Shown piece by piece: positions 1,425 to 35,802 of a stretch of 64,000 bases of DNA. Under the pieces are notes generated by a model. That model was not told the DNA's origin. It saw only the letters and a program-made list of their open reading frames with translations, and searched no databases. Each line of letters starts with the position of its first letter. The stretch's first letter is position 1. The position numbers and the translations under genes are program-made. Source of the stretch: Candidatus Moraniibacteriota bacterium (GTDB lineage Bacteria; Patescibacteriota; Minisyncoccia; Moranbacterales; GWC2-37-73); the NCBI GenBank assembly GCA_003507445.1, contig DNVR01000019.1:76395-140394 (forward strand). Direction: 5' to 3'.

Positions 1425-2468
1425 ATGGCGTACGCTGCAAAAGAAAAAAAACCAGCCAAGGAGGCGGTTGAAGAAATAAAAAATGCAGGAAAAAAAGAGA
1501 TTGATAAATTGGTGGATGATATGCAGGAAAAGTTTGGAGAGGGGATGCTGATGAAATTGGGAGATGTGAAAAGGGTTGATATCGAAGCTATTCCTACAGG
1601 TTCAATATCTCTGGATATTGCAACTGGAATTGGTGGAATGCCACGAGGAAGAATTGTGGAAATCTATGGGCCAGAATCTTCCGGAAAAACCACTCTGACA
1701 TTGCACGTTGTGGCTAATGCTCAAAAACAAGGTGGAACAGCTGCTTTTGTGGATGCGGAACACGCTCTTGATCCAGAATATGCCAAGAAGATTGGAGTGG
1801 ATATTAAGAACTTGTTGGTTTCGCAGCCAGACAATGGAGAACAAGCCTTAGACATAGTTGAATCTTTGGTGCGCTCAGGCGTGGTGGATGTTGTGGTTGT
1901 TGATTCAGTGGCTGCACTTGTACCAAAAGCTGAAATTGAAGGAGAGATGGGCGACCAGCACGTGGGAAGACAAGCACGTTTGATGTCTCAAGCTCTTAGA
2001 AAATTGACTGCAATTATTGCACGCTCAAACACAACCGTAATCTTCATCAATCAGATTCGTATGAAAATTGGTGTGATGTTTGGCAACCCAGAAACAACAA
2101 CTGGTGGACAAGCACTTAAATTTTATTCTTCAGTGCGCGTGGAAGTTCGTCGTGCTGCTCAGATTAAAAAAGGCGAGGACGTTGTTGGAAATCGCGTGAA
2201 GGTTAAAATTGTAAAAAATAAAGTTGCTCCACCATTCAAGACTGCAGAATTTGATATTATGTATAACGAAGGAATTTCAATGGCGGGAGATTTGCTTGAT
2301 GCTGGTGTGAAATTTGAGGTAGTTAAAAAATCTGGCAACTCACTTTCTTATGGCGACATTAAGCTTGGCGCAGGTCGCGAAAGTGCCAAGGCATTCTTGC
2401 GAGAAGACAAAAAGACTGCTGACAAAATCTTCAAGGAAATCGCTGAGAAAGCTAAAATAGCTGCTTAG
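1425..2468 (+). CDS. recA: Recombinase RecA
   Basis: Contains the [37 protein letters not shown] Walker A/RecA core and ...[21 protein letters not shown]. Start moved to the ATG at 1425 (MAYAAKEKK) because the first 14 codons of the ORF run through the upstream repeat. Confidence 0.93.
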
Positions 2469-2529
2469 GCTTTAGCTTGGGGAATCCCGTTTTCCCTAAA
2501 AAGTTAATGCCTGAGAAGCTGCTTGCTTG

Positions 2530-2558
2530 TTGACAAAAGTCCATTTTGGGTGTATAAT
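2530..2558 (+). promoter_or_regulatory. Consensus sigma70-type promoter (TTGACA-N17-TATAAT)
   Basis: TTGACA at 2530-2535, a 17-nt spacer, then TATAAT at 2553-2558. Lies directly downstream of the recA stop and upstream of the small ORF at 2646. Confidence 0.5.
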
Positions 2559-2566
2559 GGACATAT

Positions 2567-2600
2567 AAGGATAAAAAACGGGTGTCAAAGCCCGTTTTTT
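2567..2600 (+). terminator. Rho-independent terminator after recA
   Basis: aaaaacgggtgtcaaagcccgtttttt: a GC stem (acggg/cccgt) followed by a T-run. Confidence 0.6.
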
Positions 2601-2645
2601 CTTTAATTTAATTAAATTTTGCTCGGGGGAGCAACAAAAACAAAA

Positions 2646-2786
2646 ATGGAAAAAACCCACAAATGCGTACATTGCGCAAAAAGACACAAAGAAGAGTCGC
2701 AAAATGAGGAATTTAACTTCGCAGTGCTAATCGCACTAGTTCCACTTATGGTCTTTACCCTATTTGGACAAATCGGACTTATCTAA
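2646..2786 (+). CDS. Small 46-aa tail-anchored membrane protein (not in the ORF track because it is under 60 aa)
   Basis: ATG 2646 to TAA 2784-2786. Translation MEKTHKCVHCAKRHKEESQNEEFNFAVLIALVPLMVFTLFGQIGLI. GGGGGAG lies 14 nt upstream. Has a C-terminal hydrophobic helix and a CxxC motif, and is bracketed by the consensus promoter at 2530 and the terminator at 2806. Confidence 0.4.
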   Translation: MEKTHKCVHCAKRHKEESQNEEFNFAVLIALVPLMVFTLFGQIGLI

Positions 2787-3529: not shown

Positions 3530-3622
3530 GGATTCATGTAGCATGTAGCATGTAACATGTAGCATGCAAAAACTGCATTGCATTTTTGTTATATGTTATA
3601 TGTTTTATGTTATATGATTTGT
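3527..3622. repeat. Composite heptamer-repeat cassette E1: (CATGTAGC)n - spacer - (TATGTTA)n, abutting the efp start
   Basis: catgtagcatgtagcatgtaacatgtagcatgc ... tttgttatatgttatatgttttatgttatatga. Near-identical to 4437-4542 and related to 57332-57406, 58868-58958 and 62256-62356. Confidence 0.7.
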
Positions 3623-3956: not shown

Positions 3957-4451
3957 TTAAAATGGCACGTCTTCAAGTCTTACTTCGTCCTGTTCTTCAT
4001 CAAGGTTGATGGTTGGAATTTCTTCAGCCATAGGTGTTTGTTGTTGAGCGGTTGGACGAGGTGTTGCAGCTGCTGCTCCCATTGCCATTGGCGCTGGTCT
4101 TGGTCCTGATGAACCTTGTGCGCGTTGTCCCATTTGCATATTTTCAGCCACGATGTCAGTTGTTTTTCTTTCAACTCCGTCTTTGCCAGTGTAAGAACGT
4201 GTTTCTAATCTTCCCTCAAAATATACTTCTTGCCCTTTGGTTAGATATTGTCCAGCGATTTCAGCTAGACGCCCCCAAATTACAATGTTGTGAAATTCTG
4301 ATTTCTCTTGTTTTTGTCCAGCTTTGTCATTCCAAGTTCGGTTGGTAGCGATACCAACTGTGGTCACGGTTTGACCAGAAGGAGTGGTGCGCAATTCTGG
4401 GTCTCTAGTTAAGCGTCCGATGAGTTGAACTTTGTTAAGATTCATGTTCAT
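3957..4451 (-). CDS. ssb: Single-stranded DNA-binding protein
   Basis: MNMNLNKVQLIGRLTRDPELRTTPSGQTVTTVGIATNRTW...: an OB-fold SSB with a Gly/Pro/Ala-rich linker and an acidic tail ending ...EDVPF. Confidence 0.88.
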   Translation of the reverse strand: MNMNLNKVQLIGRLTRDPELRTTPSGQTVTTVGIATNRTWNDKAGQKQEKSEFHNIVIWGRLAEIAGQYLTKGQEVYFEGRLETRSYTGKDGVERKTTDIVAENMQMGQRAQGSSGPRPAPMAMGAAAATPRPTAQQQTPMAEEIPTINLDEEQDEVRLEDVPF

Positions 4452-4542
4452 GTAGCATGTAGCATGTATCATGTAGCATCAGAAGAAAAAATCTATCTTT
4501 TGCATTTTTGTTACACGTTATATGTTTTATGTTATATGATTT
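4437..4542. repeat. Composite heptamer-repeat cassette E2 (copy of E1), between rpsF and ssb
   Basis: catgtagcatgtagcatgtatcatgtagcatc ... tttgttacacgttatatgttttatgttatatga. The ssb start codon lies inside the CATG-repeat part. Confidence 0.7.
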
Positions 4543-5103
4543 TTAAATGTTTAGCAGTTCATCAAGTTGCTTGTCGATATTTTTTGATTCTTCTTTGGCA
4601 GTTTCAACTTTTTTAACAGGAGCTGCTGGAGCTGGTGTTGTTGGTCGTTGAGTTGGTCGCTGCATTGTTGGACGTTGATTGTTGCCAGGTCTTTCAGTTC
4701 GTTGTTGTGGTCGTTGCGCAGGGCGTCCAGCATTGTTTGCAGCTTCTTTTGCTTTTCTTCGGTCTTTTGCTCCAAGTTCTGGAAGATCCTCGGTTTTTAC
4801 AATCAAGAAACGAAGAACATCATTGTTCAAATTCAATTTGTTAGTGATGGCTTGGATTCCAAATTCTTTTTCTGCGTTTGCTTCATCTGCCCAAAAATCA
4901 ATCTCGGGAAGTTCGAAGCGGCGAGTGATGTAGGTTCCTTTGTTCTGGTGTTTGATTTCATAAGCGAGTTTTCTTTTTTCGCTTAATTCTTCTCCAACCA
5001 TTGTTGCTTGCTCAAGAGCTAGAATTGCATTAACTCCTTCTTTGATCGCAGGCAGGTTTGCTTCTTGTCGTTCACCAACAAGGTAAAACAGTTCGTATTG
5101 CAT
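4543..5103 (-). CDS. rpsF: 30S ribosomal protein S6 with a basic/proline-rich C-terminal extension
   Basis: MQYELFYLVGERQEANLPAIKEGVNAILALEQ...LAYEIKHQNKGTYITRRFELP is an S6 fold. Forms the conserved rpsF-ssb-rpsR order. Confidence 0.85.
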   Translation of the reverse strand: MQYELFYLVGERQEANLPAIKEGVNAILALEQATMVGEELSEKRKLAYEIKHQNKGTYITRRFELPEIDFWADEANAEKEFGIQAITNKLNLNNDVLRFLIVKTEDLPELGAKDRRKAKEAANNAGRPAQRPQQRTERPGNNQRPTMQRPTQRPTTPAPAAPVKKVETAKEESKNIDKQLDELLNI

Positions 5104-5509: not shown

Positions 5510-5628
5510 AAAATCCAGGTCTTTGACAAATTGAAAATGAAAGCGAGGTGAAAAAGGGAAATTGTTTTGGCAAGTGGGGAGATGTTTTCTGTTATTTTTG
5601 AAATCCAACAAGGAAAAAGGAACTAGGA

Positions 5629-6834
5629 ATGAGAAAGCTTATTCTGACAATCATGTTTTTGAATTTGTTCAGTTTTGTTTCAAATGTCTTTGCAGATGAA
5701 GATACTATTCCGCCATTTTCGGAAATTAATTGTTCAATTGGCGCATCAATGGTGCAACCGCCAGCAACACACACAGACAACGATACGCAACGGACCTTTA
5801 ATGATCTTGTTGTATGGATTAACACATACAACAATCAAAATGTTCTGAATTTTGCCTATTTCAATGATTCATATTTAACTGACTGGGTCTGTTCTGGTGA
5901 CTGCACCGGAACAGATGAGTATGCAATTATTTACACCAACTCCTGGGCTTTTGCTTATTGTGATACTGAAGGACAAAATTGTTATGGTGGGTACATGGAT
6001 CCATATATACGTGGTTTAATGGTTCGTGAAATTTTGTACTCAACTGCTCCTATACGGACTTTAAGCGGTGCAATTTATCGTCCTTCAGATTTACCTCAAC
6101 TCACTGTTGCACTAAACCCTCAAGCAGGCGGGACGGTAGCGAGTTCGCCGACATCTAACTTCTCTTGTGCAGACGGAACGTGCACGGGAAATTTCTCGGG
6201 GAATGTAACGTTGACTGCGAGTGTAAACAGTGGATATCAGCTCATTAATTGGTATGAAAATGGTACGATTATCACTAACAATTGCCCCACGACCATTTTA
6301 GACTTGACTGTGAATTGCACAAGATCAATATCGGCAGAATTCATACCAGTACTTAAATGGCCATTAACTGGAACAAAAAGTAGTAGGAGTGAGTCTTGGA
6401 ATTTTGGAAGCACATGGACTTATGGCGAATGCCCTACTGGTACATACAAAAAACATTCGGGAATCGATGTGAACGCAACCGCTGAAGAAGCTGTTTATGC
6501 AGCACATGATGGTGTGGTCAAAAAGATATTTACTGGTCAGCATTCCCAATGGGCTGACGCAATTGTTATCGAAAGCACGGATGGTCGATTTACAACAGTA
6601 TATTGGCACGTTATAAAATACGGGAGTCTATCGGAAAATGACACTGTAACAAAAGGTCAGCAGATAGCCACTATTGCAAACTTGGAAAGCAATACGCATT
6701 TTCATTTTGGTGTTCGCTTTTCATTATATAGCGATCCGGAATCATATGCTGGTGCATTGCCAGTCGCTGGTTGTGGTGGATACCTAGCGTACCCAGAAAA
6801 ATTCATTGATCCTGACGTGTTAACATACGAATAA
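5629..6834 (+). CDS. Secreted M23-family metallopeptidase with a Cys-rich N-terminal domain of unknown function
   Basis: Signal peptide MRKLILTIMFLNLFSFVSNVFA. C-terminal HSGIDVNA...AAHDGVV...HFHFGV matches the LytM/M23 motifs HxxxD and HxH. Visibly higher GC than the flanking genes, and preceded by an SD (aaggaaaaagg). Confidence 0.7.
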   Translation: MRKLILTIMFLNLFSFVSNVFADEDTIPPFSEINCSIGASMVQPPATHTDNDTQRTFNDLVVWINTYNNQNVLNFAYFNDSYLTDWVCSGDCTGTDEYAIIYTNSWAFAYCDTEGQNCYGGYMDPYIRGLMVREILYSTAPIRTLSGAIYRPSDLPQLTVALNPQAGGTVASSPTSNFSCADGTCTGNFSGNVTLTASVNSGYQLINWYENGTIITNNCPTTILDLTVNCTRSISAEFIPVLKWPLTGTKSSRSESWNFGSTWTYGECPTGTYKKHSGIDVNATAEEAVYAAHDGVVKKIFTGQHSQWADAIVIESTDGRFTTVYWHVIKYGSLSENDTVTKGQQIATIANLESNTHFHFGVRFSLYSDPESYAGALPVAGCGGYLAYPEKFIDPDVLTYE

Positions 6835-8170: not shown

Positions 8171-10129
8171 ATGAAATTTGTAATCGATAGTAAATTTAAG
8201 CCAAGTGGAGATCAACCAAGTGCAATTGAGGCTCTTATATATGGCTTGGAACATCGGGAGAAATTTCAGACGTTGTTGGGTGTGACGGGATCTGGGAAAA
8301 CATTCACGATGGCGAATGTGATTGAGCACGTGCAAAAACCGACTTTAGTGATTGCGCCGAACAAAACTTTGGCGGCACAGTTGGTGCAAGAGTTTCGAAC
8401 TTTTTTTCCAAAAAATGCAGTGGAATATTTTGTGTCGTATTATGATTATTATCAACCGGAAGCGTATATTTCTTCATCGGATACTTATATAGAAAAGGAA
8501 GTGCAGATAAACGAGGAAATTGATCGTTTGCGTCACGCTGCAACCAGTGGTCTTTTGTCGAGGAGAGATGTGATCATTGTGGCATCGGTTTCTTGTATCT
8601 ATGGTTTGGGCAGTCCGGATTATTATCGCGAAGGAACGGCTGAGGTTATTGTGGGCGAAAAGAAAAATCGTGAGGAATTGATGAAGGGAATGATCGATAT
8701 GCAATATCATCGAACGGATGTGTTGGCACGCGGAAAGTTTCGAGTAACAGGCGACACGATTGAGGTGATGACGCCGAGTCGAGAAATTGTGACTCGCATT
8801 GAATTGAAAAATGGCAAGGTTGCTCGCATTTACGAATATGATTTCTTGACCGGAGAAAAATTGGGCGAGCTTGAAAAAACTCTGATATATCCAGCCAAAC
8901 ATTTTGTGGTGCCGGAACCAGTGATGAAAGAGGCATTGGGCGAAATCGAAAAGGAAGCAAAAGAGCGCGTGAAATATTTCAGAGATAATAATAAATTATT
9001 GGAGGCTGAAAGAATTGAGAGGCGAACCAAACAGGATTTGGAAATGATGCGCGAAGTTGGATATTGTAATGGAATTGAAAATTATTCTCGCTATTTGACT
9101 GAGAGGGAAGCTGGCGAGCCGCCGTATACTTTGGTGGATTATTTCCCAAAAGATTTTTTGATGATTATTGATGAATCACACGTAACGATTCCGCAATTAA
9201 ATGCAATGTATGCTGGCGATCGTTCTCGAAAAAACGCACTTATTGAGAATGGTTTTCGTTTGCCAAGTGCATATGACAATAGACCGCTTAAGTTTGATGA
9301 ATTTGAAGAGCGCATCAATCAACTTATTTTTACCACAGCTACACCAGCTGCTTATGAAAAAGAGCATTCCAGTTCAACAGCGCAGCAGATAATCAGACCA
9401 ACTGGACTCCTTGATCCGGAAATTATTATTAAATCTGCCAAGGGACAAGTGAAAGATGTGCTGGCTGAAATTGAAAAAGTTGTTGCAAAAAAAGAAAGAG
9501 TCTTAATTACCGCACTTACAAAAAAGATGGCAGAAGATCTTTCAGAATTTTTGAAAGAAAATGGAGTGCGCTGCGAATATTTGCATTCGGATGTGGACAC
9601 GCTGGATCGCGTGCTTATTTTGCAGGGACTTCGCAAGGGAGATTTTGATGTTTTGGTTGGCGTTAATCTTTTGCGCGAAGGCTTGGATCTTCCTGAAGTT
9701 TCTTTGGTAGCAATTTTGGATGCTGACAAAGAGGGCTTTTTGCGCAGTGAAACATCGCTTATTCAAACAATCGGACGAGCTGCCAGAAATATTAATGGCC
9801 GCGTTATTTTGTATGCTGACAATATCACTGGCTCAATGAAGCGCGCTATTGATGAGACAAATCGTAGACGCACTTTGCAGACAGCATACAATAAAAAACA
9901 TCATATTACTCCAAAAACTATCGAAAAAAATATTAAATCAATTGTGGATCATGAAATTAATCCTGAAGTACCACTTGATTTTTCTAAGCTGGAATCACTC
10001 GAAGACATTGCAGGTTATATCAAGCAAAAAGAAAAAGAAATGAAAAACGCTGCTCGCTCAATGGAATTTGAAAAAGCCGCCCTTATCCGCGATGAGATTT
10101 CCACCCTGCGAAAACTGCAGTTGAAATAG
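8171..10129 (+). CDS. uvrB: Excinuclease ABC subunit B
   Basis: GVTGSGKTF Walker A, helicase motifs, and a C-terminal UVR domain (MEFEKAALIRDEISTLRKLQ). 652 aa. Confidence 0.95.
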   Translation: MKFVIDSKFKPSGDQPSAIEALIYGLEHREKFQTLLGVTGSGKTFTMANVIEHVQKPTLVIAPNKTLAAQLVQEFRTFFPKNAVEYFVSYYDYYQPEAYISSSDTYIEKEVQINEEIDRLRHAATSGLLSRRDVIIVASVSCIYGLGSPDYYREGTAEVIVGEKKNREELMKGMIDMQYHRTDVLARGKFRVTGDTIEVMTPSREIVTRIELKNGKVARIYEYDFLTGEKLGELEKTLIYPAKHFVVPEPVMKEALGEIEKEAKERVKYFRDNNKLLEAERIERRTKQDLEMMREVGYCNGIENYSRYLTEREAGEPPYTLVDYFPKDFLMIIDESHVTIPQLNAMYAGDRSRKNALIENGFRLPSAYDNRPLKFDEFEERINQLIFTTATPAAYEKEHSSSTAQQIIRPTGLLDPEIIIKSAKGQVKDVLAEIEKVVAKKERVLITALTKKMAEDLSEFLKENGVRCEYLHSDVDTLDRVLILQGLRKGDFDVLVGVNLLREGLDLPEVSLVAILDADKEGFLRSETSLIQTIGRAARNINGRVILYADNITGSMKRAIDETNRRRTLQTAYNKKHHITPKTIEKNIKSIVDHEINPEVPLDFSKLESLEDIAGYIKQKEKEMKNAARSMEFEKAALIRDEISTLRKLQLK

Positions 10130-10157
10130 TTTCAATTTTACATCTTTGACAAATGGT

Positions 10158-10177
10158 CTGTAATTGATATATTACAG
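10158..10177 (+). promoter_or_regulatory. Inverted repeat CTGTAAT-N6-ATTACAG inside a TTGACA-N17 promoter upstream of the orphan gene at 10252
   Basis: ctgtaattgatatattacag, with TTGACA at 10146-10151. A candidate operator site. Confidence 0.35.
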
Positions 10178-10854: not shown

Positions 10855-11961
10855 ATGGAGGGAGAAAACAAAGTAGAAGACAAAATATTGGAAGCGTCAG
10901 AAACAAAAGTTGATTCATCTGTCGGGGAGGCAGGAAAAAAGGTTTCTTTTGTTGAAAAAATGAAAAAGGTGTGTTGTAATGATGGATCTTGCAAAATTAA
11001 TTGCAAAAACAAAGGCCTTATAGTTGCTGCTGTTATTTTGTTGCTGTTGGTTGCGGGTAGTTATGGATATAAACAATATCGACAGAAGATAGATCTTGGT
11101 TCAGATGCTGTGAAAACTAAGGTAGAGAAATTCTTGAGTGAAAATGTTCCAGCAACAGCAAAGACTGGAATTAAAGATATAACCAAGGATGGAGATTTGT
11201 ATAAAATTACAGTTACTGTTGATAAGCAAGAAATTCCAATATTTGTGACTCGTGATGGGAAAAAGCTTATCCAAGCACAAGGTGTTATCGATTTGGACCA
11301 AAAACCAGCCGATCCAAATGCTCAAGCGCAAGCTCCTGAAAAAACAGAAGCTGAAAACAAAACCGATGTGCCAGTTGTTGATTTGTTTGTGATGAGTTAC
11401 TGCCCATATGGACTTCAAATGGAAAGAGGTGTTTTGCCAGCAGTTGAAGCGCTTGGAGCAAAAATAAAATTCAATGTAAAATTTGTTGATTATACTTTGC
11501 ACGGACAAAAAGAAGTTACTGAAAATGTTAATCAATATTGCATTGGAAAAACACAGCCAACTAAGTTGAATAATTATCTAAAATGTTTTTGGAAAGACAG
11601 CAAAGGTACAGCGGCTGCTTGTATGAAAACTGCAGGGGTTAATGCTGCTAGTGTCGCAACTTGTGTTGCTGATACCAACAAGGAATTTAATCCAACAGAA
11701 AAAGCGATGGGATTGAACAAGGAAGAAACTGTGAAATTTGGAGTGCAAGGATCTCCAACACTTGTGATTAATGGAACAACTGTTTCATCTAGCCGCGATA
11801 GCGCAAGTGTTTTGAAAGCTATTTGCTCAGGATTCACAACTCAGCCTAAGGAATGTGAGGCGAAATTGTCTACCACAGCTCCTGCAGCTGGATTTGATGA
11901 TGAAGCTGCTGCAGCAGGAGGAGCAGCATCTGCTGCATCTTGCGCAACACCAACAAACTAA
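10855..11961 (+). CDS. Membrane-anchored thioredoxin-fold thiol:disulfide oxidoreductase (DsbA-like)
   Basis: N-terminal TM (LIVAAVILLLLVAGSYGY), a CxxC active site (SYCPYG), and an Ala-rich C-terminal tail. Confidence 0.6.
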   Translation: MEGENKVEDKILEASETKVDSSVGEAGKKVSFVEKMKKVCCNDGSCKINCKNKGLIVAAVILLLLVAGSYGYKQYRQKIDLGSDAVKTKVEKFLSENVPATAKTGIKDITKDGDLYKITVTVDKQEIPIFVTRDGKKLIQAQGVIDLDQKPADPNAQAQAPEKTEAENKTDVPVVDLFVMSYCPYGLQMERGVLPAVEALGAKIKFNVKFVDYTLHGQKEVTENVNQYCIGKTQPTKLNNYLKCFWKDSKGTAAACMKTAGVNAASVATCVADTNKEFNPTEKAMGLNKEETVKFGVQGSPTLVINGTTVSSSRDSASVLKAICSGFTTQPKECEAKLSTTAPAAGFDDEAAAAGGAASAASCATPTN

Positions 11962-12041
11962 TAACATCCTACAAAATTGATTTCTTCTTAAAAGCGTAGT
12001 ACTATGTATTACGCTTTTAAATTTATGATTTAATTTTAAAT

Positions 12042-14936: not shown

Positions 14937-15061
14937 CTTTCTTCCTTATCTTTCTCTCCTCAGATGAGGAGAGATGTCATGTACTCGTGACAGAGAGGTT
15001 TGAGCATTGCATGACCCACAAATCTACAAATCTGCTACGAATCTACAAATACATCAATCTT

Positions 15062-15176
15062 GTTATTCCGGGCTTGACCCGGAATCTAGGTTTAGCACAT
15101 CATGCTCTATGTTGTAGTTGATTATAATTGGCTAATTAAGTGCTAGATCCTAGATTCCCACCTACGCGGGAATGAC
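15062..15176. mobile_element. GTCAT...ATGAC palindromic MITE-like element (P1 family), intergenic copy 2
   Basis: gttattccgggcttgacccggaatctaggtttagcac ... gtgctagatcctagattcccacctacgcgggaatgac. Upstream is an (ATCTACAA)3 repeat at 15010-15050. Confidence 0.55.
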
Positions 15177-15217
15177 ATAATAAAAAATATAGTTTTTTGG
15201 TGTTGATATTTTGAGAT

Positions 15218-17212: not shown

Positions 17213-17311
17213 TTGAAAGACAGTTTGAGTTGTTGCGTATGAATATATACAAATCAAGACTGAGTTTCGAAATGATAGGCGAACTCAGTTTTGTGCAATG
17301 GGAATGGAAAT

Positions 17312-17880: not shown

Positions 17881-17892
17881 TACTTATATAAT

Positions 17893-19413: not shown

Positions 19414-19427
19414 TTTATAGGACTTAC

Positions 19428-19555: not shown

Positions 19556-19564
19556 AAAAAATAT

Positions 19565-22351: not shown

Positions 22352-22536
22352 TTTTAAAAAATACACTAAGGCGGGTTCATATTTGATGGGTCTGCTTTTT
22401 TGTATCTGTTAATATTGAGTGACGATCAGAAGGGTTTTGACAATTATCCTGTTTGTGATAATGTGTAATATCCAATAAATTATTTTTTTGGAGCAGTTAT
22501 TTGTCAATAAAATCAACGAACAAAAGGAGAGATACA

Positions 22537-23829
22537 ATGAAAAAGGCGAATGTGAAGTTAGATGCTATCGAAGGTCATATTGGTGATCAGCTTGAAATTG
22601 AAGAATTACTCAGTAAGGGTGGAACAATCTATGAACATATGCTGGAAGCTTTGCCTGATTGTCCGCAAAGAGTCCAATATGCCCGTCTTTCTTATGAGAA
22701 TGCTATGAAATCAGGCATGTATTTTACTGGTGTTTATACGGTAAAATTTTTGCCAGAGGATGAGATGATTGCATGTCTCGAGGAAGTTATCCAGAAAAGT
22801 ATAAAAGCTGGTCGTGAAAACTGGGCAGATAATGCTATTAAAGCTTTTCCTCGAACAGGAAAATGGAATAACAGAAGGATTGAGTTACTGGAAGCGGTTA
22901 TAAAAAGGCACCTTGATGAAGGAATTGCAAATTGGGCAAAAGATGCCGCAATGGAAATTCCGAGAGATCTTACTTCGGCCGAGTTGGAAAGAATAATTTC
23001 TCAGCAACTGGAAAATGATTTTCCTCGAGCAGAAACGGCGGCTGGTATTCTGCGTAGATCGTTTACACTTGATGAGCTTAGAATTGCCGCCAACGGTGCA
23101 AAGAAGAAACAGTGGTGGGAATTGCTCATCAAAATCGCGCAGATGTTTCCAAAAGAAAATCAGAAAGAATGCGAATTGCTCATCAGTGAGGCGCATAAGG
23201 CTGTTGTCAAAAAAGGTGATGCAAGCGGCATAGATAAAATTTGCAAAGCTCAAGGGAATCGGAAAAAAACAACTGATGAGCTGAAAATTGTTTTTGAAAA
23301 GGCGTGCAAAGATTCAGGCGTGTTTCATAATAATGTTTCGTATTATGCTGAGGAGCTTGCAAAAGATCCTGCAAACATCGCTTATCTTGAAGATAAAGCA
23401 AAAATGCTTGTGGATGAATTTGCAGAAAATGCGCTTGATATTGCTCTGAAATTGCCAGGTACAAGTGTTGAAAGATGCAACATTATCGAAGTCATTGCCC
23501 TTAAAGCTCTTAAGCAAAAGCGGCAGAATCTTATCAAAAAATGCGCGCCTGCTTTGCCTGAAGGAAATGAGGCGCGTACAAAGTTGGCACAATATCTCGT
23601 AACTGAAGTGCGAAAAAAAGTGGGAAAATTCGATTCCATTAAAAGAGGAGAGGATGTTGAATTTGCAGTTGAGGCGGTAAAGCTTCTTCCTAAAGTTGCC
23701 GAGAAAACAAATCACTTATTGGATCTTTACAAATCTGCAAAGAGGATAGAGGATAGTCTCGATCGTCGAGATGATCGGAGCCCATCAGGATTTTACGAGG
23801 TCAAGATGGAGCTTAATCGCTGCGGGTAA
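22537..23829 (+). CDS. Hypothetical alpha-helical protein with internal ~30-aa repeats (orphan, GC-richer)
   Basis: Strong SD (aaaaggagag). Repeated motifs: NWADNAIKAFPRTGKW, ANWAKDAAMEIPRDL and DFPRAETAAGILRRS. Has its own terminator. Confidence 0.45.
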   Translation: MKKANVKLDAIEGHIGDQLEIEELLSKGGTIYEHMLEALPDCPQRVQYARLSYENAMKSGMYFTGVYTVKFLPEDEMIACLEEVIQKSIKAGRENWADNAIKAFPRTGKWNNRRIELLEAVIKRHLDEGIANWAKDAAMEIPRDLTSAELERIISQQLENDFPRAETAAGILRRSFTLDELRIAANGAKKKQWWELLIKIAQMFPKENQKECELLISEAHKAVVKKGDASGIDKICKAQGNRKKTTDELKIVFEKACKDSGVFHNNVSYYAEELAKDPANIAYLEDKAKMLVDEFAENALDIALKLPGTSVERCNIIEVIALKALKQKRQNLIKKCAPALPEGNEARTKLAQYLVTEVRKKVGKFDSIKRGEDVEFAVEAVKLLPKVAEKTNHLLDLYKSAKRIEDSLDRRDDRSPSGFYEVKMELNRCG

Positions 23830-23853
23830 ACTATGGAAAAATATTAAATAATA

Positions 23854-23884
23854 GGGCGACACTGAAACAGTGTCGCCCTTTTTT
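23854..23884 (+). terminator. Rho-independent terminator
   Basis: gggcgacactgaaacagtgtcgccc followed by tttttt. Confidence 0.7.
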
Positions 23885-23906
23885 GTTACGTAACAGGTTA
23901 CGTAAC
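23885..23906 (+). promoter_or_regulatory. Two tandem perfect 10-bp palindromes GTTACGTAAC (candidate operator upstream of uvrA2)
   Basis: gttacgtaac at 23885-23894 and again at 23897-23906. Confidence 0.35.
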
Positions 23907-24067
23907 ACTCAAATATTGATAGGCTTTACATTTCGGGTTTTTGCTGATACAATTATCTCCAGTATAAATTTGAAATCTGGACTTGAAACAAAGAAAAATA
24001 TGATTTAGAGAAAGACCTGTTTTAATGCCTAAAACCTAATACCTAATACCTAATATCTTCTTAAACT

Positions 24068-26860
24068 ATGGCTTCCAAAAAAGAAACTTCGAAACAAACA
24101 AATGAGATTGTAATCAAGGGTGCGCGAGTTAATAATCTCAAAAACATCGACGTTAACATCCCGAGGGATAAGTTCGTGGTGATTACGGGACTTTCTGGCT
24201 CGGGTAAATCATCGCTGGCTTTTGACACGATTTATGCCGAAGGTAATCGTCGATATATGGAAGGCCTTTCTTCGTATGCGCGAAATTTTTTGGATCCATC
24301 AGATAAGCCTGACGTGGATAAAATTGAAAATCTTTCCCCTCCAATTTCTATTGATCAAAAAAGCATTTCTCGTTCTCCGCGATCAACTGTTGGAACACTG
24401 ACTGAGGTTTATGATTATTTGCGTATTATGTATGCAAAAATCGGAGTGCTGCATTGCCCGGAGTGTGGGACATCAATGCAAAAAAGAAGCAATCAGGAAA
24501 TTTTGGATGAAATTTTAACATTTTCTCATCACACTCAGATTGCTATTTTGGCAAAGCCGAAGGATATTGCTGTTGGAAAAGAATTATTAAAACACATTGC
24601 GCAAATGGGCTATGCTCGTGTGCGTTTTAATGGAAAAATGTTTACGGTAGCGGAAGCTATGATGCTCAGCGAAAGTGAAATTGAAACTGATATTGAAATG
24701 GTTATTGATAGAATTGTGCTCGACAAGAAAAAACCTGATGTGGAAAGAATGTTAGACTCTATTGAAACAGCGATGAAAAACGGTGGCAATTCAATGAAGA
24801 TCTTGTTTGATAATGTTGAAGAACGTAATTATAACCAAGATTTCTTTTGCAGCGAATGCGGTGTGAAAATCAAAGAAGTGACGCCGCGTCATTTTTCTTT
24901 TAATAGTCCAGAGGGTGCTTGCGACCTGTGCTCCGGTTTAGGTTACACCTTAAAAGTAAATGAAGAACTTATTATTCCCAATAAAAATCTTTCTTTAATG
25001 GAAGGTGCAATTCAGCCCTGGAGCAAATCTGGTGGAAAAATAAGTGGACAGAGTGTGCAACTTTTGACGCTTAAAGATGTTGCAAAAAAATATAAGTTTT
25101 CAATGAACGTTCCGGTTAAAAAATTAACAGCTGATCAACTCAAAATTGTTTTACATGGTAATGATGGATTTGAAGGTGTAATTCCGGCATTAGAAAAAAA
25201 ATATCAAGAAACAAAATCTGATTATGTGCGCAGTGAAATTGAAAAATATATGACCGCACACACTTGTCCATCTTGCGATGGCAAGCGTCTTAAAAAAGAA
25301 TTTTTGGCGGTGGAAGTTCAAGGAAAAACAATAGATGTGATGGTCTCAATGAGTATAACTCATCTGAGAGAATTTTTTGAGAATGTTGAAAATTGGACAC
25401 AAACAACACAAGAGAAAAGCATAGGCAAACCTATTGTGCGAGAAATTTTGCAGCGTCTTAGTGCACTTGAAAACGTGGGATTGGAATATTTAAATTTGGG
25501 ACGATCAGCTCAAACAATTTCTGGTGGGGAAGCTCAACGTATCAGACTGGCTGCGCAACTCAATTCTCAATTGATGGGAATTGTATATGTTTTGGATGAA
25601 CCTTCCATCGGACTTCATTCTCGCGACACAGAAAAACTTATTAATACTATTAAAGCCTTGCAAAACGTTGGAAATTCATTGATTGTGGTTGAACACGATG
25701 AAAGCATCATTAAAGCTGCTGACTGGATTGTTGATATGGGTCCAGGGGCAGGAGAAGAAGGCGGAATCGTCGTTTTTGAAGGTGATTATAATCAACTTAT
25801 TAAATCTAAAAATCTTACTGCACAATATATATCTAAAAAGAAAAAGGTTTCAGAAAAGAAAAAAAATAGAGCTGGAAACGGTAAATTTATTGAAATTATC
25901 GGAGCTGAAGAAAATAATTTAAAAAATGTTGATATAAAAATACCATTGGAAAAATTTGTGGTTATTTGTGGAGTTTCAGGCAGTGGAAAATCAACTTTGG
26001 TAAAAAATATTTTAGCCAAAGCATTGTCGCGACATTTTTATAACACACGAGATCTTCCTGGTAAACACAAAAAAATCAAAGGATTTGAGCATATTAAAAA
26101 GGTTATTAGTATAAATCAAAATCCAATCGGACGCACTCCACGCTCAAATGCAGCAACGTATACTGGAGTGTTCTCACACATTCGCGACCTGTTTGCTGGA
26201 GTGGAGGAAGCAAAGAACAGAAATTATACTGCTAGTCGCTTTAGTTTTAATATGAAAGGTGGGCGCTGTGAAGTGTGCCAAGGGGAAGGCTCAAAGAAAA
26301 TAGAAATGCATCTGCTTCCTGATATGTATGTGAAATGCGAAGCTTGCGGAGGAACGAGGTTTAGCAAAAAAACCTTAGAGATTGAATATAAAGGCTTTAA
26401 TGTTGCACAGATTTTGGATATGGATGTGCGCTTGGCTCTGCGTTTTTTTGCAAGGCATCCGCTTATTGCTGAAAAACTTAAAACCATGGAAGATGTTGGT
26501 CTTGGATATTTGAAGCTCGGACAAAGTGCAACAAATCTTTCTGGTGGAGAAGCTCAGCGTATTAAACTTGCCACGGAGCTTGCACGAAAATCAACAGGCA
26601 GCACTTTGTATATTTTGGATGAGCCAACTGCAGGACTTCATTTTGATGATATCAGAAAATTGTTAAGCGTTCTTAATGCCTTGGTTGATAAAGGTAATAC
26701 AGTGATTGTGGTTGAACATAATCTTGATGTTGTTCGTGATGCTGATTGGGTGATTGAACTTGGACCGGATGGTGGCGACCTTGGTGGTTATCTCACTTTT
26801 GCTGGCACACCAGATCAACTTAAAAAAGACAAGAAAAGTTGGACCGCGAAATATTTGTAG
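24068..26860 (+). CDS. uvrA: Excinuclease ABC subunit A paralog (copy 2, full length)
   Basis: [34 protein letters not shown]... Has two ABC modules and Zn-finger Cys pairs. 930 aa; the domain order matches copy 1. Confidence 0.9.
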
Positions 26861-26870
26861 AGATGTCTGT

Positions 26871-26985
26871 GTCATTCCGGACTTGATCCGGAATCCAGGA
26901 TTTAACGCACTATTTTTTCTATTATAATATTCGTAATTTAATACTTGAGATATTAATCCTGGATTCCTGCCTACGCAGGAATGAC
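26871..26985. mobile_element. GTCAT...ATGAC palindromic MITE-like element (P1 family), intergenic copy 3
   Basis: gtcattccggacttgatccggaatccaggatttaacgcac ... atcctggattcctgcctacgcaggaatgac. Confidence 0.6.
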
Positions 26986-27001
26986 AAAGAAAAAAGTAAA
27001 G

Positions 27002-27460
27002 TTATAATGATAGCAAAATAATTGCTATCACTGAAAAAATAATATCGTTCGCTGCATTTCGGAGTGTCCAGAGTCTTTCTTTTGAGTCATCTGGAAATTT
27101 GTGAACTCGTTGGTGGAATTTATATATTTTTTCTAAAAATTTGAAATTAAGTTTCCAATAGAGTACTGTTAACAAATCAGGAAACATTGAGATGAGCGCA
27201 CCTGTTATTATTGAGATGGAAATTACTGACGGTATGTTTTTGGCATAAATTGCAAAAAGAATAATCACACCGCCGACAAGAAGATCAAGAATCACTTTCC
27301 AAGTTGTATTTTTGAAAGTTGATTTTTTTCCTAAATATTCTCCGTGGCGAAAAGTATCTAAAATGTAATGAAGGGGGATCAGGACTGCTGTTAATGCTAT
27401 TGGATTGTGAATGTACTTTCCAATGGCAGCGCCGACAAGGGCGTGAGTGGTAAGGATCAT
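27002..27460 (-). CDS. Small polytopic membrane protein, possibly of the DUF457 (YdjM-like membrane-bound metal-dependent hydrolase) family
   Basis: MILTTHALVGAAIGKYIH start, three to four TM helices. Weak family assignment. Confidence 0.35.
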   Translation of the reverse strand: MILTTHALVGAAIGKYIHNPIALTAVLIPLHYILDTFRHGEYLGKKSTFKNTTWKVILDLLVGGVIILFAIYAKNIPSVISISIITGALISMFPDLLTVLYWKLNFKFLEKIYKFHQRVHKFPDDSKERLWTLRNAANDIIFSVIAIILLSL

Positions 27461-28429: not shown

Positions 28430-30154
28430 ATGAAAAATGAAATTCAAAAATTAATAGAAAGTGCCTTAAATGAGGCAAAAAGGGCTAATGATTGGGTTGA
28501 TTTTGAGATGCCTGAAATTCTCGTTGAATATCCAAAAAGTGAACAATTTGGGGATTATACAACAAATGTTGCTATGATTTTAGCAAAAAAAGTTGGGAAA
28601 AATCCGATGGAAATAGCTGAGATTATTAACTTACAACTTACAACTTACAACTTACAACAATTTGAAAAAATAGAGGTGGCTCAGCCGGGATATATTAACT
28701 TTTATCTTTCCAAAAAGTATTTGCAAGAAATCGTTGAAAAAATAAATACTGAAAAAGAAAAATTTGGAAATTCTGATAAAAAAAATGAGAAAGTATTGGT
28801 AGAATTTTCACAACCAAATACTCATAAAGAATTTCATATCGGCCATTTAAGGAATGTGTTTATTGGAGATGCGCTTGTTAAAACGATAAAGAAATCCGGC
28901 AGCGAGGTAGTTGCTGCAAATTATATCGGGGACACCGGGACACATATTGCAAAGTGTTTATGGGGAATTGTTAAATTTCATAATGGGGAAGATTTGGATA
29001 AGATATCAAACAAGGCTGAATTTCTAGGAAAGGTTTACAGTGAAGCTGCACAGGCTATTGAGAATAATCCTGAATTCGAAGAAGAATTTAAAAATGTCCA
29101 AAAAGAATTTGAAAATGGTGATCAGGAATTGGTTCAATTGTGGAGCAAGACAAAAAAATGGTCGTTGGATGAATTTCAAAAGATTTATGAAAAACTCGGA
29201 GTATCTTTTGACGTTTACTTTTGGGAAAGCGAGGAAGAACTGAAAGGCAAGGAAATGCTAAAAGAATTGATGGGGGTATCCTGTATTAAGGAAAGTCAGG
29301 GAGCTATCGTGGCAGATCTTGAAAAATATGACTTAGGAGTTCTAGTGCTGGTCAGAAAGGACGGTAGCGCCTTGTATGGATTGAAAGATATACCTCTGGC
29401 TGTGAAAAAATTCAAAGAATTTTCCATAGATCGTAGCATAGTGGTTGTTGATTTGCGTCAGAGTCTATATTTCAAACAGATATTCAAAATTCTTGAATGC
29501 ATGGGATTTCACAAAGATATGAAACACGTGGGCTACGAGTTTGTATCCCTGAAGGGAAGTGAGACGATGTCGTCCAGGAAAGGAAACATCATACCAGCAA
29601 CATATTTGATTGATGAAACCGTAAAGCGTGTAAAGGAAAAATTTCCCAATACCGATGTTGCTGAAGAAATTGGCATAGGTGCGTTGAAATTTTATATGCT
29701 GAAATATTCCTCACAGTCAAAAATAGAATACGATATTGAAGAGTCTGTAAGATTAGATGGCGCAACCGGACCGTATGTACAATATGCGCATGCGCGTATT
29801 TGCAATATCTTGGAAAAGGCAAAGGGAATAAAAGGATTAATGGGAGAAAAGGGAAAAATGGGCAATGTGGATTTGCAATTATTAATCCATGAGAAGGAAG
29901 TAAGTTTGATAAAAGAGCTTAATAAATTTCCGGAATTGGTTGCTGTGGTTGCTGAGGATTATGAAGTTCACAAGTTTGCCCATTATGCCATCAAATTGGC
30001 TGACAAATTTCACAGTTTTTATGATGCTTGTAAGGTGATTGATGAGGGCAATGAAGAACTGACAATCGCTAGACTTTCTCTGATAAATGCTGTTAGAATA
30101 GTATTAGCAGAAACCCTGGATTTGATAGGGGTGGATGCACCTGAAAAAATGTAG
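28430..30154 (+). CDS. argS: Arginine--tRNA ligase with an in-frame (ACAACTT)n insertion
   Basis: HIGH-like region (FSQPNTHKEFHIGHLRNVFIGD), with KMSSRKG in the KMSKS position. The insertion NLQLTTYNLQQ is encoded by aacttacaacttacaacttacaacttacaa at 28626-28660. Start uncertain (28394 or 28430). Confidence 0.88.
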   Translation: MKNEIQKLIESALNEAKRANDWVDFEMPEILVEYPKSEQFGDYTTNVAMILAKKVGKNPMEIAEIINLQLTTYNLQQFEKIEVAQPGYINFYLSKKYLQEIVEKINTEKEKFGNSDKKNEKVLVEFSQPNTHKEFHIGHLRNVFIGDALVKTIKKSGSEVVAANYIGDTGTHIAKCLWGIVKFHNGEDLDKISNKAEFLGKVYSEAAQAIENNPEFEEEFKNVQKEFENGDQELVQLWSKTKKWSLDEFQKIYEKLGVSFDVYFWESEEELKGKEMLKELMGVSCIKESQGAIVADLEKYDLGVLVLVRKDGSALYGLKDIPLAVKKFKEFSIDRSIVVVDLRQSLYFKQIFKILECMGFHKDMKHVGYEFVSLKGSETMSSRKGNIIPATYLIDETVKRVKEKFPNTDVAEEIGIGALKFYMLKYSSQSKIEYDIEESVRLDGATGPYVQYAHARICNILEKAKGIKGLMGEKGKMGNVDLQLLIHEKEVSLIKELNKFPELVAVVAEDYEVHKFAHYAIKLADKFHSFYDACKVIDEGNEELTIARLSLINAVRIVLAETLDLIGVDAPEKM

Positions 30155-30156: not shown

Positions 30157-30245
30157 ATAACTAATAACAAACAACTAACTACTAACAACAAGGGCTTAAC
30201 AAAGCATTTCTGTTATAAGTTGTAAGTAGTAAGTTGTCAGTTAAT
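30157..30245. repeat. Long imperfect hairpin built from ACAACTA / TAGTTGT repeat units (argS-glycosyltransferase spacer)
   Basis: caactaactactaacaac at 30167-30184 is inverted as gttgtaagtagtaagttg at 30225-30242. Confidence 0.55.
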
Positions 30246-34676: not shown

Positions 34677-34709
34677 TATAATTTTTCTATAGAGTTAGTT
34701 CTTTTTATA

Positions 34710-35015
34710 GTGGTTTTGTTAATGGTGACTGTTTTTTTTCAAACCAATCCTGAGGAAATCAGGAGAAAGGAGATTGTCGTGGAGAGCGCACCGTACACAC
34801 CATATTATGATGCAGGGGATGAGCCGATAAATATTTTCCTCAACGCTGAGGGTAAAGAAGAAATTCAGCCCGAAAACGTTGAGAGATCATATGCTCTAAG
34901 TCAAGAATTCGAAAATCCAACCCCTTGGTTTGAAGGAAAAGAAAGACGAGGTATAGCTATTGTGCTTTTTTTAGTAGTTGTATTTTTAATTGTCTTTTTT
35001 TCTTTTCGAGTTTAA
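34710..35015 (+). CDS. Small hypothetical protein with a C-terminal TM anchor
   Basis: 101 aa ending in the hydrophobic stretch IAIVLFLVVVFLIVFFSF. Confidence 0.4.
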   Translation: MVLLMVTVFFQTNPEEIRRKEIVVESAPYTPYYDAGDEPINIFLNAEGKEEIQPENVERSYALSQEFENPTPWFEGKERRGIAIVLFLVVVFLIVFFSFRV

Positions 35016-35020
35016 ATTTA

Positions 35021-35058
35021 GGTCACACAGGCAATTGCTTGTGTGACCTTTTATTTTC
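35021..35058 (+). terminator. Rho-independent terminator
   Basis: ggtcacacaggcaattgcttgtgtgacc followed by ttttatttt. Confidence 0.7.
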
Positions 35059-35082
35059 TTTAAAACTCCGTATAATTCATAT

Positions 35083-35802
35083 ATGGAATACAAATATACC
35101 GGGATTATCTTGAATAAGAGGAATGTGGGAGAAACGGATAGGATTTATACAATCTATACTCTTGAAGGTGGAAAAGTTCGTTCGCTTGCCAAGGGTGTGC
35201 GCAAATCGCATGCTAAATTGGCGGCTTCACTTGAAAACATTACTTTGGCTGACATTACGATTGTTAGAACTCGTGGACTTGGAAAAATTACCGGTTCGAT
35301 TGTTGAAAATAATTTCAGTTCACTTAAGCGAGATTGCGATGCACTTTTGGAAACTTTTGCCGGACTGAGTATTTTTGAGAAGCTGGTTGATTTTGAAAGT
35401 CCTGACAAAAAAGTTTTCTTATTGCTTAAGGAATATTTGGAAGCAGTTAATGAATGTTCATTAAATGAAAACATAGAAAAACATATCATAATAAGATTGG
35501 GGTTTATTGTAAAACTTTTGGATGCGCTGGGGTATACTATTGAAGTGGACAACTGTGTTTCTTGCGGAAAAAAATTAGCGCAAGATTTTCTTTGTTTCAG
35601 TTCTCAGCAAGGTGGCGCAATATGTCAGCATTGCGCCAGTGGCAATGACAGTTGTGTTTTGTCTGTGCGTACAAACACCATAAAAATGCTCAGATTATTT
35701 TTGAAAAACAAAATTCAATCTTTAACCAAAATTAAAGCTACGCAAGATGATTGTGACGGTGTGCGTTTGGTTGTCGATGATTTTTTAAGATGGACACTTT
35801 AG
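35083..35802 (+). CDS. recO: DNA repair protein RecO
   Basis: N-terminal OB fold (TGIILNKRNVGETDRIYTIYTLEGGKVRSLAKGVRK) and a C-terminal Zn finger (CVSCGKK...CQHC). Confidence 0.8.
   Translation: MEYKYTGIILNKRNVGETDRIYTIYTLEGGKVRSLAKGVRKSHAKLAASLENITLADITIVRTRGLGKITGSIVENNFSSLKRDCDALLETFAGLSIFEKLVDFESPDKKVFLLLKEYLEAVNECSLNENIEKHIIIRLGFIVKLLDALGYTIEVDNCVSCGKKLAQDFLCFSSQQGGAICQHCASGNDSCVLSVRTNTIKMLRLFLKNKIQSLTKIKATQDDCDGVRLVVDDFLRWTL

Follow-up and report, generated by a model that had tools for sequence, protein, structure and literature searches.

Why would a bacterium from a lineage that has shed many of its pathways keep two genes for the same DNA damage sensor? The question is raised by a 64-kb stretch of chromosome from Candidatus Moranbacteria (hereafter the window), in which the excision-repair genes uvrB, uvrA and uvrC are followed by a second, full-length uvrA. 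Genomes of the Patescibacteria, or Candidate Phyla Radiation (CPR), to which this organism belongs, measure about 1 Mb. Since genomes this small keep two UvrA genes under strong purifying selection, encoding 964 and 930 amino acids (aa) in the window, the second sensor must contribute something. An earlier note on this DNA had drawn attention to the duplication, to what looked like a concentration of repair genes around it, and to two palindromes that might act as operators of a damage regulon. Below we set out why the second protein, UvrA2, would seem to be an ancient paralogue that has diverged where lesions and UvrB are handled, why we lean towards its being a second UvrB-dependent sensor, and why the palindromes do not appear to tie the repair genes together.

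UvrA2 is a full-length UvrA of class I type

The genes in question, with their surroundings, are these:

8171-10129, plus strand: uvrB, first gene of the cluster (NF003673, 1006 bits against a cut-off of 743)
10855-11961, plus strand: orf368, membrane-anchored, with weak Pfam matches to DSBA and VSR_TRX (DsbA/thioredoxin)
12042-14936, plus strand: uvrA1, a canonical class I UvrA of 964 aa
15725-17212, plus strand: uvrC, 495 aa (TIGR00194, 332 bits)
17291-23829, plus strand: copper cassette comprising orf130, a DsbD/HMA/cupredoxin protein, the copper ATPase CopA and the orphan orf442
23853-23879, plus strand: intrinsic terminator of orf442, a 12-bp stem with eight G-C pairs followed by a T run
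24068-26860, plus strand: uvrA2, 930 aa, a diverged class I-type paralogue
27002-27460, minus strand: orf152, a small membrane protein convergent with uvrA2

Gene identities were taken from scans of NCBIfam and Pfam profiles, which confirmed every position that the earlier note had given for recA, ssb, uvrB, the two uvrA copies, uvrC and recO. Both UvrA proteins pass the equivalog cut-off of NF001503 (1147 bits), UvrA1 with 1457 and UvrA2 with 1265.1 bits, and UvrA2 also scores 1204.5 bits against TIGR00630, where the cut-off is 729.8. Over their full length the two are 47% identical. The description of the second copy as full-length holds on alignment: UvrA2 has both ABC modules, with two GSGKS, two LSGGE and two DEP motifs and two H-loop histidines, all of them invariant in an alignment of 63 sequences; it has a UvrB-binding domain inserted in signature domain I (PF17760 UvrA_inter, E=2.4e-16, residues 141-246) and an insertion domain (PF17755 UvrA_DNA-bind, E=7e-24, residues 299-393). 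The zinc-binding cysteines C130, C133, C261, C285, C288, C400, C403, C734, C737, C757 and C760 are likewise invariant across the 63 sequences, and with C264, which is present in the window's UvrA2, three zinc modules of four cysteines each are complete.

Is UvrA2 nonetheless a relative of the class II proteins? By definition, class II UvrAs have neither a UvrB-binding domain nor zinc module 1 (PMC9328131, PMC3167621). Because UvrA2 retains both, it is not class II, in line with the suspicion of the earlier note that this was no short form. Structural comparison gives the same answer. An AlphaFold2 model of UvrA2 (predicted local distance difference test, pLDDT, 85, and about 80-90 in the UvrB-binding domain; predicted template modelling score, pTM, 0.76) finds its best matches in the class I structures 2r6f and 3uwx, with template modelling (TM) scores of 0.84-0.86 and 51-52% identity, as against 35% and 27% identity to the class II structures 2vf7 and 7sh1. 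What UvrA2 has in common with class II proteins such as Deinococcus radiodurans UvrA2 (2VF7), DrrC and Ecm16 (7SH1) is its standing as a second UvrA beside a canonical one, possibly with a non-identical role; those proteins, however, need no UvrB for their action and are without the UvrB-binding domain and zinc module 1, both of which the window's UvrA2 has.

A conserved excision-repair cluster

To place the window among its relatives, one genome per species was scanned for related loci and synteny was established by tblastn with the window's genes; the identical or near-identical public matches of the window's proteins are named Candidatus Moranbacteria or Parcubacteria group. UvrA2 orthologues of 55-98% identity are found in about 70 Moranbacteria/Parcubacteria species genomes, and the order uvrB-(orf368)-uvrA1-uvrC-uvrA2 is seen again in dozens of species of Moranbacteria as well as in Patescibacteria more distantly related. 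By tblastn, uvrB is located 5' of uvrA1 in many Moranbacteria loci, in many cases with orf368 between the two. Where enough upstream DNA is available (47 loci), uvrA1 lies 5' of uvrA2 in 28, and in 22 of these 28 uvrC abuts uvrA2; the majority of relatives thus have uvrC immediately between the two uvrA genes. The order uvrA-uvrC-uvrA also surrounds two proteins named 'Patescibacteria group' (P0364 and P0403), the nearest relatives outside the core UvrA2 clade, where the second UvrA is only 52% identical. The excision-repair cluster is thus old and conserved across the lineage, and as far as the four uvr genes are concerned the concentration of repair genes seen by the earlier note is real. 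Neither the conserved arrangement uvrA1-uvrC-uvrA2 nor the UvrA2 clade was found described for Patescibacteria in the searchable literature.

If uvrC abuts uvrA2 elsewhere, why are the two 7 kb apart in the window? The cassette that separates them (orf130, DsbD/HMA, CopA and variable genes) is confined to the window's close relatives, and the 22 loci in which uvrC abuts uvrA2 are more distant ones, so the gap is due to a secondary insertion. Spacing differs upstream too: uvrA1 and uvrC form a tight operon in relatives, about 10-30 nucleotides (nt) apart, and stand about 790 nt apart in the window. Open reading frames (ORFs) of 1385-1418 aa that looked like UvrA1-UvrC fusions in three relatives (L048, L069, L077) were ruled out, there being an in-frame stop between the genes.

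The window's uvrC carries in-frame repeat insertions, and its Pfam domains are GIY-YIG, UVR and UvrC_RNaseH only; the Pfam and NCBIfam scans detected no helix-hairpin-helix domain in it. As a side observation, the UvrC proteins of this lineage are short, with 495 aa in the window and 411-417 aa in members of the P0364 clade (L081:8657-9910, L083:7909-9144), again with no helix-hairpin-helix domain detected.

An ancient paralogue under purifying selection

Did the second copy arise by recent duplication of its neighbour? UvrA1 is 53-57% identical to canonical UvrAs from Thermus, Clostridia, Limnochordia and Chloroflexi and UvrA2 is 48-52% identical to the same set, so that UvrA2 is closer to canonical UvrAs than to the UvrA1 encoded beside it (47%). 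In a neighbour-joining phylogeny UvrA1 groups with the canonical UvrAs and UvrA2 falls in a separate deep clade. The split between UvrA1 plus canonical UvrAs on one side and UvrA2 plus P0364 and P0383 on the other was recovered in 100 of 100 bootstraps under each of four settings (two distance corrections, each with or without both add-on domains), and a sister grouping of UvrA1 and UvrA2 never appeared in the bootstraps under any of the four. This argues against a recent local duplication. In an all-against-all search of representatives, which is dominated by tandem double-length UvrAs, the UvrA2 clade forms a single 50% cluster (P0089) whose nearest single-length matches are 49-52% identical. 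Taken at face value, then, the sequences make UvrA2 an ancient class I-type paralogue rather than a recent copy.

The protein is also under strong purifying selection. Between close relatives the ratio of nonsynonymous to synonymous substitution rates (dN/dS) comes to 0.035-0.038 over the entire protein and to 0.024-0.056 over the UvrB-binding domain, rough values given that dS is saturated. Conservation of the UvrB-binding domain within the UvrA2 clade (0.66) matches that seen across phyla in canonical UvrAs (0.65). Given this level of conservation and the low dN/dS, the add-on domains of UvrA2 are not decaying.

Divergence is concentrated in the UvrB-binding and insertion domains

Conserved as it is within its own clade, UvrA2 departs from UvrA1 very unevenly along its length. 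The two share 53-70% identity in the ATPase modules; the figure for the UvrB-binding domain is only 24%, and that for the insertion domain 30%. In the first of these two add-on domains, UvrA2 has lost the RKGE and K-N-K-K-H motifs, which are conserved both among canonical UvrAs and in UvrA1. In the second, about 20 residues between '...HGNDG' and 'FEGVIP' are missing from the window's UvrA2, at the position of the Arg/Tyr-rich β-hairpin, while UvrA1 retains this segment. According to recent cryo-electron microscopy (cryo-EM), only Thermotoga and Aquifex depart from an otherwise conserved hairpin, which is reported to raise retention on damaged DNA (PMC11985968).

The hairpin segment of canonical UvrAs measures 25-26 aa and that of UvrA1 26-50 aa. 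The segment is 6 aa long in every UvrA2 sequence at least 71% identical to the window's, 10-14 aa in other sub-clades, and 21-27 aa but rich in Lys and Glu in the remaining members of the clade. We considered the deletion as a mark of the whole UvrA2 clade and rejected this, the 6-aa form being restricted to the sub-clade at or above 71% identity. Since segment length varies between UvrA2 sub-clades, the hairpin has degenerated or been lost repeatedly, and only in UvrA2. Judged from sequence, then, UvrA2 has changed in exactly those parts that deal with lesions and UvrB, its UvrB-binding surface having been remodelled and its hairpin deleted.

How unusual is this? With the class I UvrAs of E. 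coli, B. stearothermophilus (2R6F/3UWX) and M. tuberculosis (3ZQJ) both window proteins share the full domain set; the window's UvrA2 differs from them in having no β-hairpin, no RKGE and no KNKKH, and in forming a deep clade that sits beside a canonical UvrA in the same cluster. The UvrA of Thermotoga maritima (3PIH) is a class I protein that, like UvrA2, naturally lacks the insertion-domain β-hairpin (PMC11985968). There, however, it is the functional excision-repair UvrA of the organism and the loss is attributed to high growth temperature, whereas here a hairpin-bearing paralogue coexists with the hairpin-less one. No sign of a thermophilic lifestyle turned up in our data, although no test was aimed at it.

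Divergence of this kind could mean that UvrA2 has left excision repair altogether and works without UvrB, as the class II proteins DrrC and Ecm16 do, removing DNA-bound toxins or intercalators or scanning DNA in some other capacity. It is indeed the UvrB-binding domain that has diverged most and has lost RKGE and KNKKH; UvrA2 is markedly more basic than UvrA1 (mean net charge +13.6 versus +3.0), though a domain-by-domain charge comparison was uninformative beyond this overall difference; and second UvrAs that have been characterised act outside excision repair (PMC9328131). If UvrB no longer mattered, however, one would hardly expect the UvrB-binding domain to be retained, to be predicted to fold and to evolve at a dN/dS of about 0.04. 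Nor would one expect the UvrB contact residues to be kept: R227 and E233 of UvrA2 align to R216 and E222 of Bacillus stearothermophilus UvrA, which form the UvrB interaction surface and whose substitution disrupts the surface for interaction with UvrB and Mfd (PMC3025350), and both are kept in at least 95% of 28 UvrA2 sequences. Add to this that the gene adjoins uvrC in a uvr cluster and that the protein is 51% identical to class I but 27-35% identical to class II structures, and a UvrB-independent role appears quite improbable.

uvrA2 has its own promoter

Two elements precede the uvrA2 start codon:

23925-23953, plus strand: uvrA2 promoter, TTTACA-17-TACAAT, TG-extended
24023-24055, plus strand: heptamer array TAATACC x4.7 in the uvrA2 leader (Tandem Repeats Finder)

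About 50 of 70 orthologous loci have the same promoter 5' of uvrA2, even loci in which the end of uvrC is no more than 66-380 nt away, and uvrA2 is accordingly predicted to be transcribed from a conserved promoter of its own. The leader that would result, about 107 nt long, has no Shine-Dalgarno sequence and no stable fold, and is less structured than shuffled versions of itself (z=+1.72).

Separate promoters bring up a simpler explanation for the second copy, namely that it is a back-up or a means of raising dosage and differs from the first in nothing but the timing of its expression. Both copies have all their catalytic and structural motifs intact, as this would lead us to expect, and there is a precedent: Bacteroides fragilis likewise encodes a pair of full-length UvrAs that share 46% identity and are differentially expressed (PMC5028390). 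Because that pair is on record, we regard the possession of two UvrAs as a variant of something known; the resemblance extends to two full-length paralogues of about 46% identity in one genome under separate regulation, the differences being that Bacteroides is another taxon and that no conserved uvrA-uvrC-uvrA cluster has been described there. Yet if UvrA2 were a mere spare, we would not expect its divergence to be focused on the two add-on domains, nor the hairpin to have been lost repeatedly and in UvrA2 alone, a pattern that suggests altered function. It also seems unlikely that 2.8 kb of redundant gene would be kept across a deep clade of genomes of about 1 Mb. Redundancy is therefore an account that we consider unlikely.

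A second sensor for UvrB?

What, then, does UvrA2 do? Its ATPase sites, its DNA-binding signature domain II, its zinc modules, its constrained UvrB-binding domain with the contact residues kept, and its location in the uvr cluster lead us to infer that it is a second UvrB-dependent sensor. UvrA2 would form its own dimer and load the single UvrB of the organism, either at a class of distortion unlike that recognised by UvrA1 or under conditions unlike those in which UvrA1 acts, after which UvrC would cut as usual. We favour this scheme, with a preference that is real but modest; loading of UvrB by UvrA2 and a division of labour between two sensors are what the sequences would predict.

Several points weigh against it. 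The tree on which the antiquity of UvrA2 rests was built from distances, with long branches and only a few other Patescibacteria sampled, and duplication within the lineage followed by acceleration, or an old transfer, would be compatible with it; the tree cannot separate these histories. Thirteen of the 47 loci with enough upstream DNA have neither uvrA1 nor uvrC within 10 kb 5' of uvrA2. The RKGE and KNKKH motifs of canonical UvrAs are gone from its UvrB-binding domain, and retention of the R216/E222 equivalents alone would be no proof of UvrB binding. Finally, the same data would be fitted by a heterodimer of UvrA1 and UvrA2.

In its obligate or preferred form, such a heterodimer would be an asymmetric sensor with one hairpin and two non-equivalent sites for loading UvrB. 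Across a deep clade the two genes remain linked on either side of uvrC; strong purifying selection acts on both; and the ATPase cores, which form the dimer interface, are the parts in which the two proteins are most alike (53-70%). A conserved promoter that belongs to uvrA2 and stands apart from uvrA1-uvrC does not favour a fixed stoichiometry, however, and in several genomes (L058, L040, L049) uvrA2 has been relocated away from uvrA1. To a heterodimer we thus assign a low probability. The more particular proposal, that the asymmetry splits damage recognition and strand-specific loading of UvrB between a protomer with the hairpin and a canonical dock and a protomer without hairpin and with a remodelled dock, strikes us as slightly less probable again. 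To our knowledge, a two-subunit split of sensing and UvrB loading has not been described in bacterial excision repair. We therefore return to UvrA2 as a dimer in its own right that would hand lesions to UvrB as the reading to which we give most weight.

Repair genes without a common operator

Could the second uvrA instead be understood as part of a co-regulated repair island? Seven repair-related genes lie within 35 kb, three of them outside the uvr cluster:

1383-2468, plus strand: recA (TIGR02012, 530 bits), a neighbour outside the uvr cluster
3957-4472, minus strand: ssb, a neighbour and housekeeping gene of the rpsF-ssb-rpsR operon
35083-35802, plus strand: recO (TIGR00613, 125 bits), a syntenic neighbour downstream of ileS

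The positions of these three are kept in several relatives, alongside housekeeping neighbours. That of recO is kept in L004, L014, L021, L023, L025 and L026, and the ssb gene is the ordinary one of the rpsF-ssb-rpsR operon, since rpsR is also called on a public contig, DOKX01000004.1 (GCA_003510165.1), which is 100% identical to the first 11,329 nt of the window and which we used for the flanking genes. The nearness of recA, ssb and recO to the uvr cluster is conserved synteny in a small genome, not a repair island, and this part of the supposed concentration comes without a regulatory link.

The earlier note had proposed that two nearby palindromes may act as operators of a damage regulon:

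10146-10177, plus strand: sigma-70-like promoter before the orphan orf144, TTGACA-16-TATATT, TG-extended, 11 of 12 consensus positions
23885-23906, no strand assigned: GTTACGTAAC-AG-GTTACGTAAC, two 10-bp palindromes in 12-bp phase

Both palindromes are where they had been reported. The first, CTGTAAT-N6-ATTACAG at 10158-10177, sits in the spacer and -10 region of the orf144 promoter. It is absent from all 17 orthologous regions downstream of uvrB, no homologue of orf144 was found in related loci, and with 0.29 matches expected in the window at up to two mismatches it is not statistically striking.

The second is a different matter. Within the window alone GTTACGTAAC would attract little notice: it occurs exactly twice, at 23885-23894 and 23897-23906, and 11 of 100 shuffles give at least two matches at up to one mismatch. 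Its pair of units starts 5 nt past the stem of the orf442 terminator and stops 18 nt short of the -35 element of uvrA2. Before uvrA2 the pair is found in 4 of about 70 genomes, namely the window, L010 (exact), L004 (GTTACGTAAT/ATTACGTAAC) and L003 (GCTACGTAGC/GTTACGCAGC), and it is absent from that position in the closest relatives, L025 and L001. In public metagenomes, however, GTTACGTAAC-NN-GTTACGTAAC has at least 119 exact matches where about one would be expected by chance (a rough figure for 20 specified bases). Among the matches listed (loci L085-L203, for example L088, L098, L105, L126, L129 and L133), the flanks of the arrays are mutually unrelated, the arrays have 2-4 units, and 34 of 107 unique contexts have three or four units in strict 12-bp phase. 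The excess of matches, the unrelated flanks and the strict phasing convince us that the motif is real.

What the motif does is suggested by its neighbours. In 12 of the 107 contexts, among the matches listed, the array lies 10-74 nt 5' of a gene for a protein of 53-61 aa with the SpoVT/AbrB/MazE fold (PF04014). These are stand-alone genes whose products share the consensus ...IRKITKVGGKSYAVTLPIE..., and no consistent toxin partner was seen beside them in the listed contexts. Other neighbours include NUDIX hydrolases, an aldolase, MnmA, YebC and similar genes. (At one metagenome locus, L122, the array is followed immediately by an ORF whose similarity is confined to the C-terminal endonuclease half of UvrC.) The layout 5' of PF04014 genes is typical of auto-regulated operators; from AbrB/SpoVT/MazE-fold proteins and their operators our case differs in that no such gene was found in the window or in 10 kb on either side and in the want of a consistent toxin partner. 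Most simply read, the array is probably a candidate operator of a small AbrB/SpoVT-type regulator, with no visible link to DNA damage, that would have been recruited before uvrA2 only sporadically. No description of GTTACGTAAC as a bacterial operator, or as paired with an AbrB-type regulator, was found in the searchable literature.

Neither palindrome, in sum, is conserved at orthologous positions or recurs before another repair gene, which speaks against their being operators of a damage regulon; in metagenomes, arrays of GTTACGTAAC proved to be widespread. A search of the upstream regions of the seven repair genes for any shared operator returned only AT-rich trivia and no shared palindrome, and AAAGACCT was not enriched there.

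LexA is encoded nearby

The earlier note had also remarked that no lexA is present. That is true of the window, but the same contig encodes LexA 2.7-3.3 kb before window position 1, as a 220-aa Peptidase_S24 protein that is 65% identical to the LexA of a related locus (L061). Upstream of the window the gene order is rpoBC-ORF6N-lexA-orf96-ftsK-rodZ-recA, with the ORF6N-lexA operon 2.7-4.0 kb upstream of position 1 (L204:5640-7012) and lexA about 4 kb 5' of recA. In a sister sub-clade (L051, L053, L061, L066) lexA lies directly 5' of uvrA1, and the L049 locus has lexA as well. The L061 and L049 proteins match TIGR00498 over their full length (E=3e-25 and 6e-29) and fall below the curated cut-off. 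In the window, the position held by lexA in the sister sub-clade is occupied by a hairpin with a 15-bp stem (TTAAAAGCGTAGTAC...GTATTACGCTTTTAA, 11988-12020), 22 nt before the uvrA1 start codon.

Six lexA-operon promoters have in common TTATCCACA followed by TTGCAGTGATA-N6-CAGTGNTA-GAA-TAACACTG over the -35 and -10 elements; TTATCCACA is, incidentally, a perfect match to a DnaA-box-like sequence. From this we infer CAGTGATA-N6-CAGTGNTA-N3-TAACACTG as a candidate LexA operator of Moranbacteria. Its core, AGTGNTA-N3-TANCACT at up to one mismatch, was found in 1.4 Mb of related loci only at five lexA promoters, the sixth, from the window's own contig, having been added after that search. A weight matrix built on the six sites, which themselves score 24-32 bits, reaches at best 7.8 bits in the window, below the mean shuffle maximum of 11.2 bits, and no LexA-operator-like site lies upstream of recA, ssb, uvrB, uvrA1, uvrC, uvrA2 or recO. 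If the motif at the lexA promoters is indeed the LexA operator, the repair genes of the window are not under LexA control, and within the 84-kb neighbourhood LexA appears to regulate only its own operon. The likeness to a classical LexA/SOS regulon thus consists in a LexA with the catalytic Ser and Lys motifs and an operator-like repeat at its operon; it ends with the seven repair genes, none of which carries the lexA-promoter motif.

With this in hand, the idea of a damage regulon or repair island run through the GTTACGTAAC pair and CTGTAAT-N6-ATTACAG can be judged. The crowding of the seven genes, the placement of both palindromes near promoters, the presence of lexA only 4 kb 5' of recA and its position directly 5' of uvrA1 in the sister sub-clade all make it attractive. 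Yet the palindromes are unlike the motif conserved at the six lexA promoters, which itself has no match in the window; they are neither repeated before other repair genes nor kept at orthologous positions; and the GTTACGTAAC array goes with AbrB-type and unrelated genes. We find such a regulon hardly credible.

Neighbouring genes and repeats

The window has a G+C content of about 37%, and its genes are strongly biased to the plus strand. An Rfam scan of it returned two tRNAs and no other RNA element. Besides the genes already listed, the region between recA and recO holds efp, rpsF, an M23 peptidase gene, rsmI, argS, a glycosyltransferase gene and ileS. The ribosomal protein S6 encoded at 4543-5103 is 186 aa long and has a Pro/Gln/Arg-rich C-terminal extension of about 80 aa. 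The possible YdjM/DUF457-like gene of the earlier note is probably orf152: there is a small gene at that place, kept 3' of uvrA2 in those relatives that have a UvrA2 with at least about 67% identity to that of the window, but its match to Pfam YdjM (E=0.011, 15.6 bits) lies below the cut-off of 29 and leaves that assignment unconfirmed.

The array in the uvrA2 leader is one of many. The window contains 26 period-7 tandem arrays of at least three copies, where dinucleotide shuffles give 0.2 per window, along with two period-8 arrays and one of period 9. Almost all period-7 arrays are 30-31 nt long (4.3-4.4 copies), each with its own heptamer, and most finish at a start codon without a Shine-Dalgarno sequence or no more than about 15 nt from one; examples are 1343-1378, 3535-3620, 4449-4538, 5607-5629, 24023-24055, 30212-30242, 57329-57410, 58183-58213 and 58924-58963. 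They are lineage-specific: Moranbacteria loci have 1.1-2.05 of them per 10 kb, and non-CPR loci and L081-L084 have none. They may serve to keep leaders free of structure or may have arisen by slippage. Two genes on the minus strand, efp (3535-3620) and ssb (4449-4538), share a pair of arrays in their start regions, CATGTAG x4.5 and TGTTATA x4.3; the reverse complement of the former, CTACATG, puts ATG in all three frames at the gene start. Arrays also lie in frame within genes, at 12778-12807 in uvrA1, at 16284-16320, 16666-16736 and 17047-17071 in uvrC, at 28628-28658 in argS, and at 18978-19011 and 21483-21512. On alignment, one in-frame array is a lineage-specific insertion in the UvrB-binding domain of UvrA1.

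The window further contains four copies, at 2841-2952, 15060-15178, 16180-16263 and 26869-26987, of a palindromic element of 85-120 nt, which has the ends TTGTCATTCC...GGAATGACAA and is similar to a miniature transposable element. Its single-stranded DNA has a folding energy of -21 kcal/mol (z=-4.2). One copy lies in frame within uvrC and encodes '...HPALDAGSS...SRLRGNDK'.

Implications

Two things follow from this locus. The reading of its repair genes as an SOS-like regulon, tempting as it is, has been corrected, and the LexA of the lineage has been located together with its likely operator. As for the two sensors, recent cryo-EM work ties the hairpin and the UvrB-docking domain to lesion retention and hand-off. 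Because UvrA2 differs from UvrA1 in precisely the hairpin and the UvrB-docking domain, the pair would amount to a natural experiment on how damage is discriminated and passed on, one that genomes of about 1 Mb have kept running under strong purifying selection.

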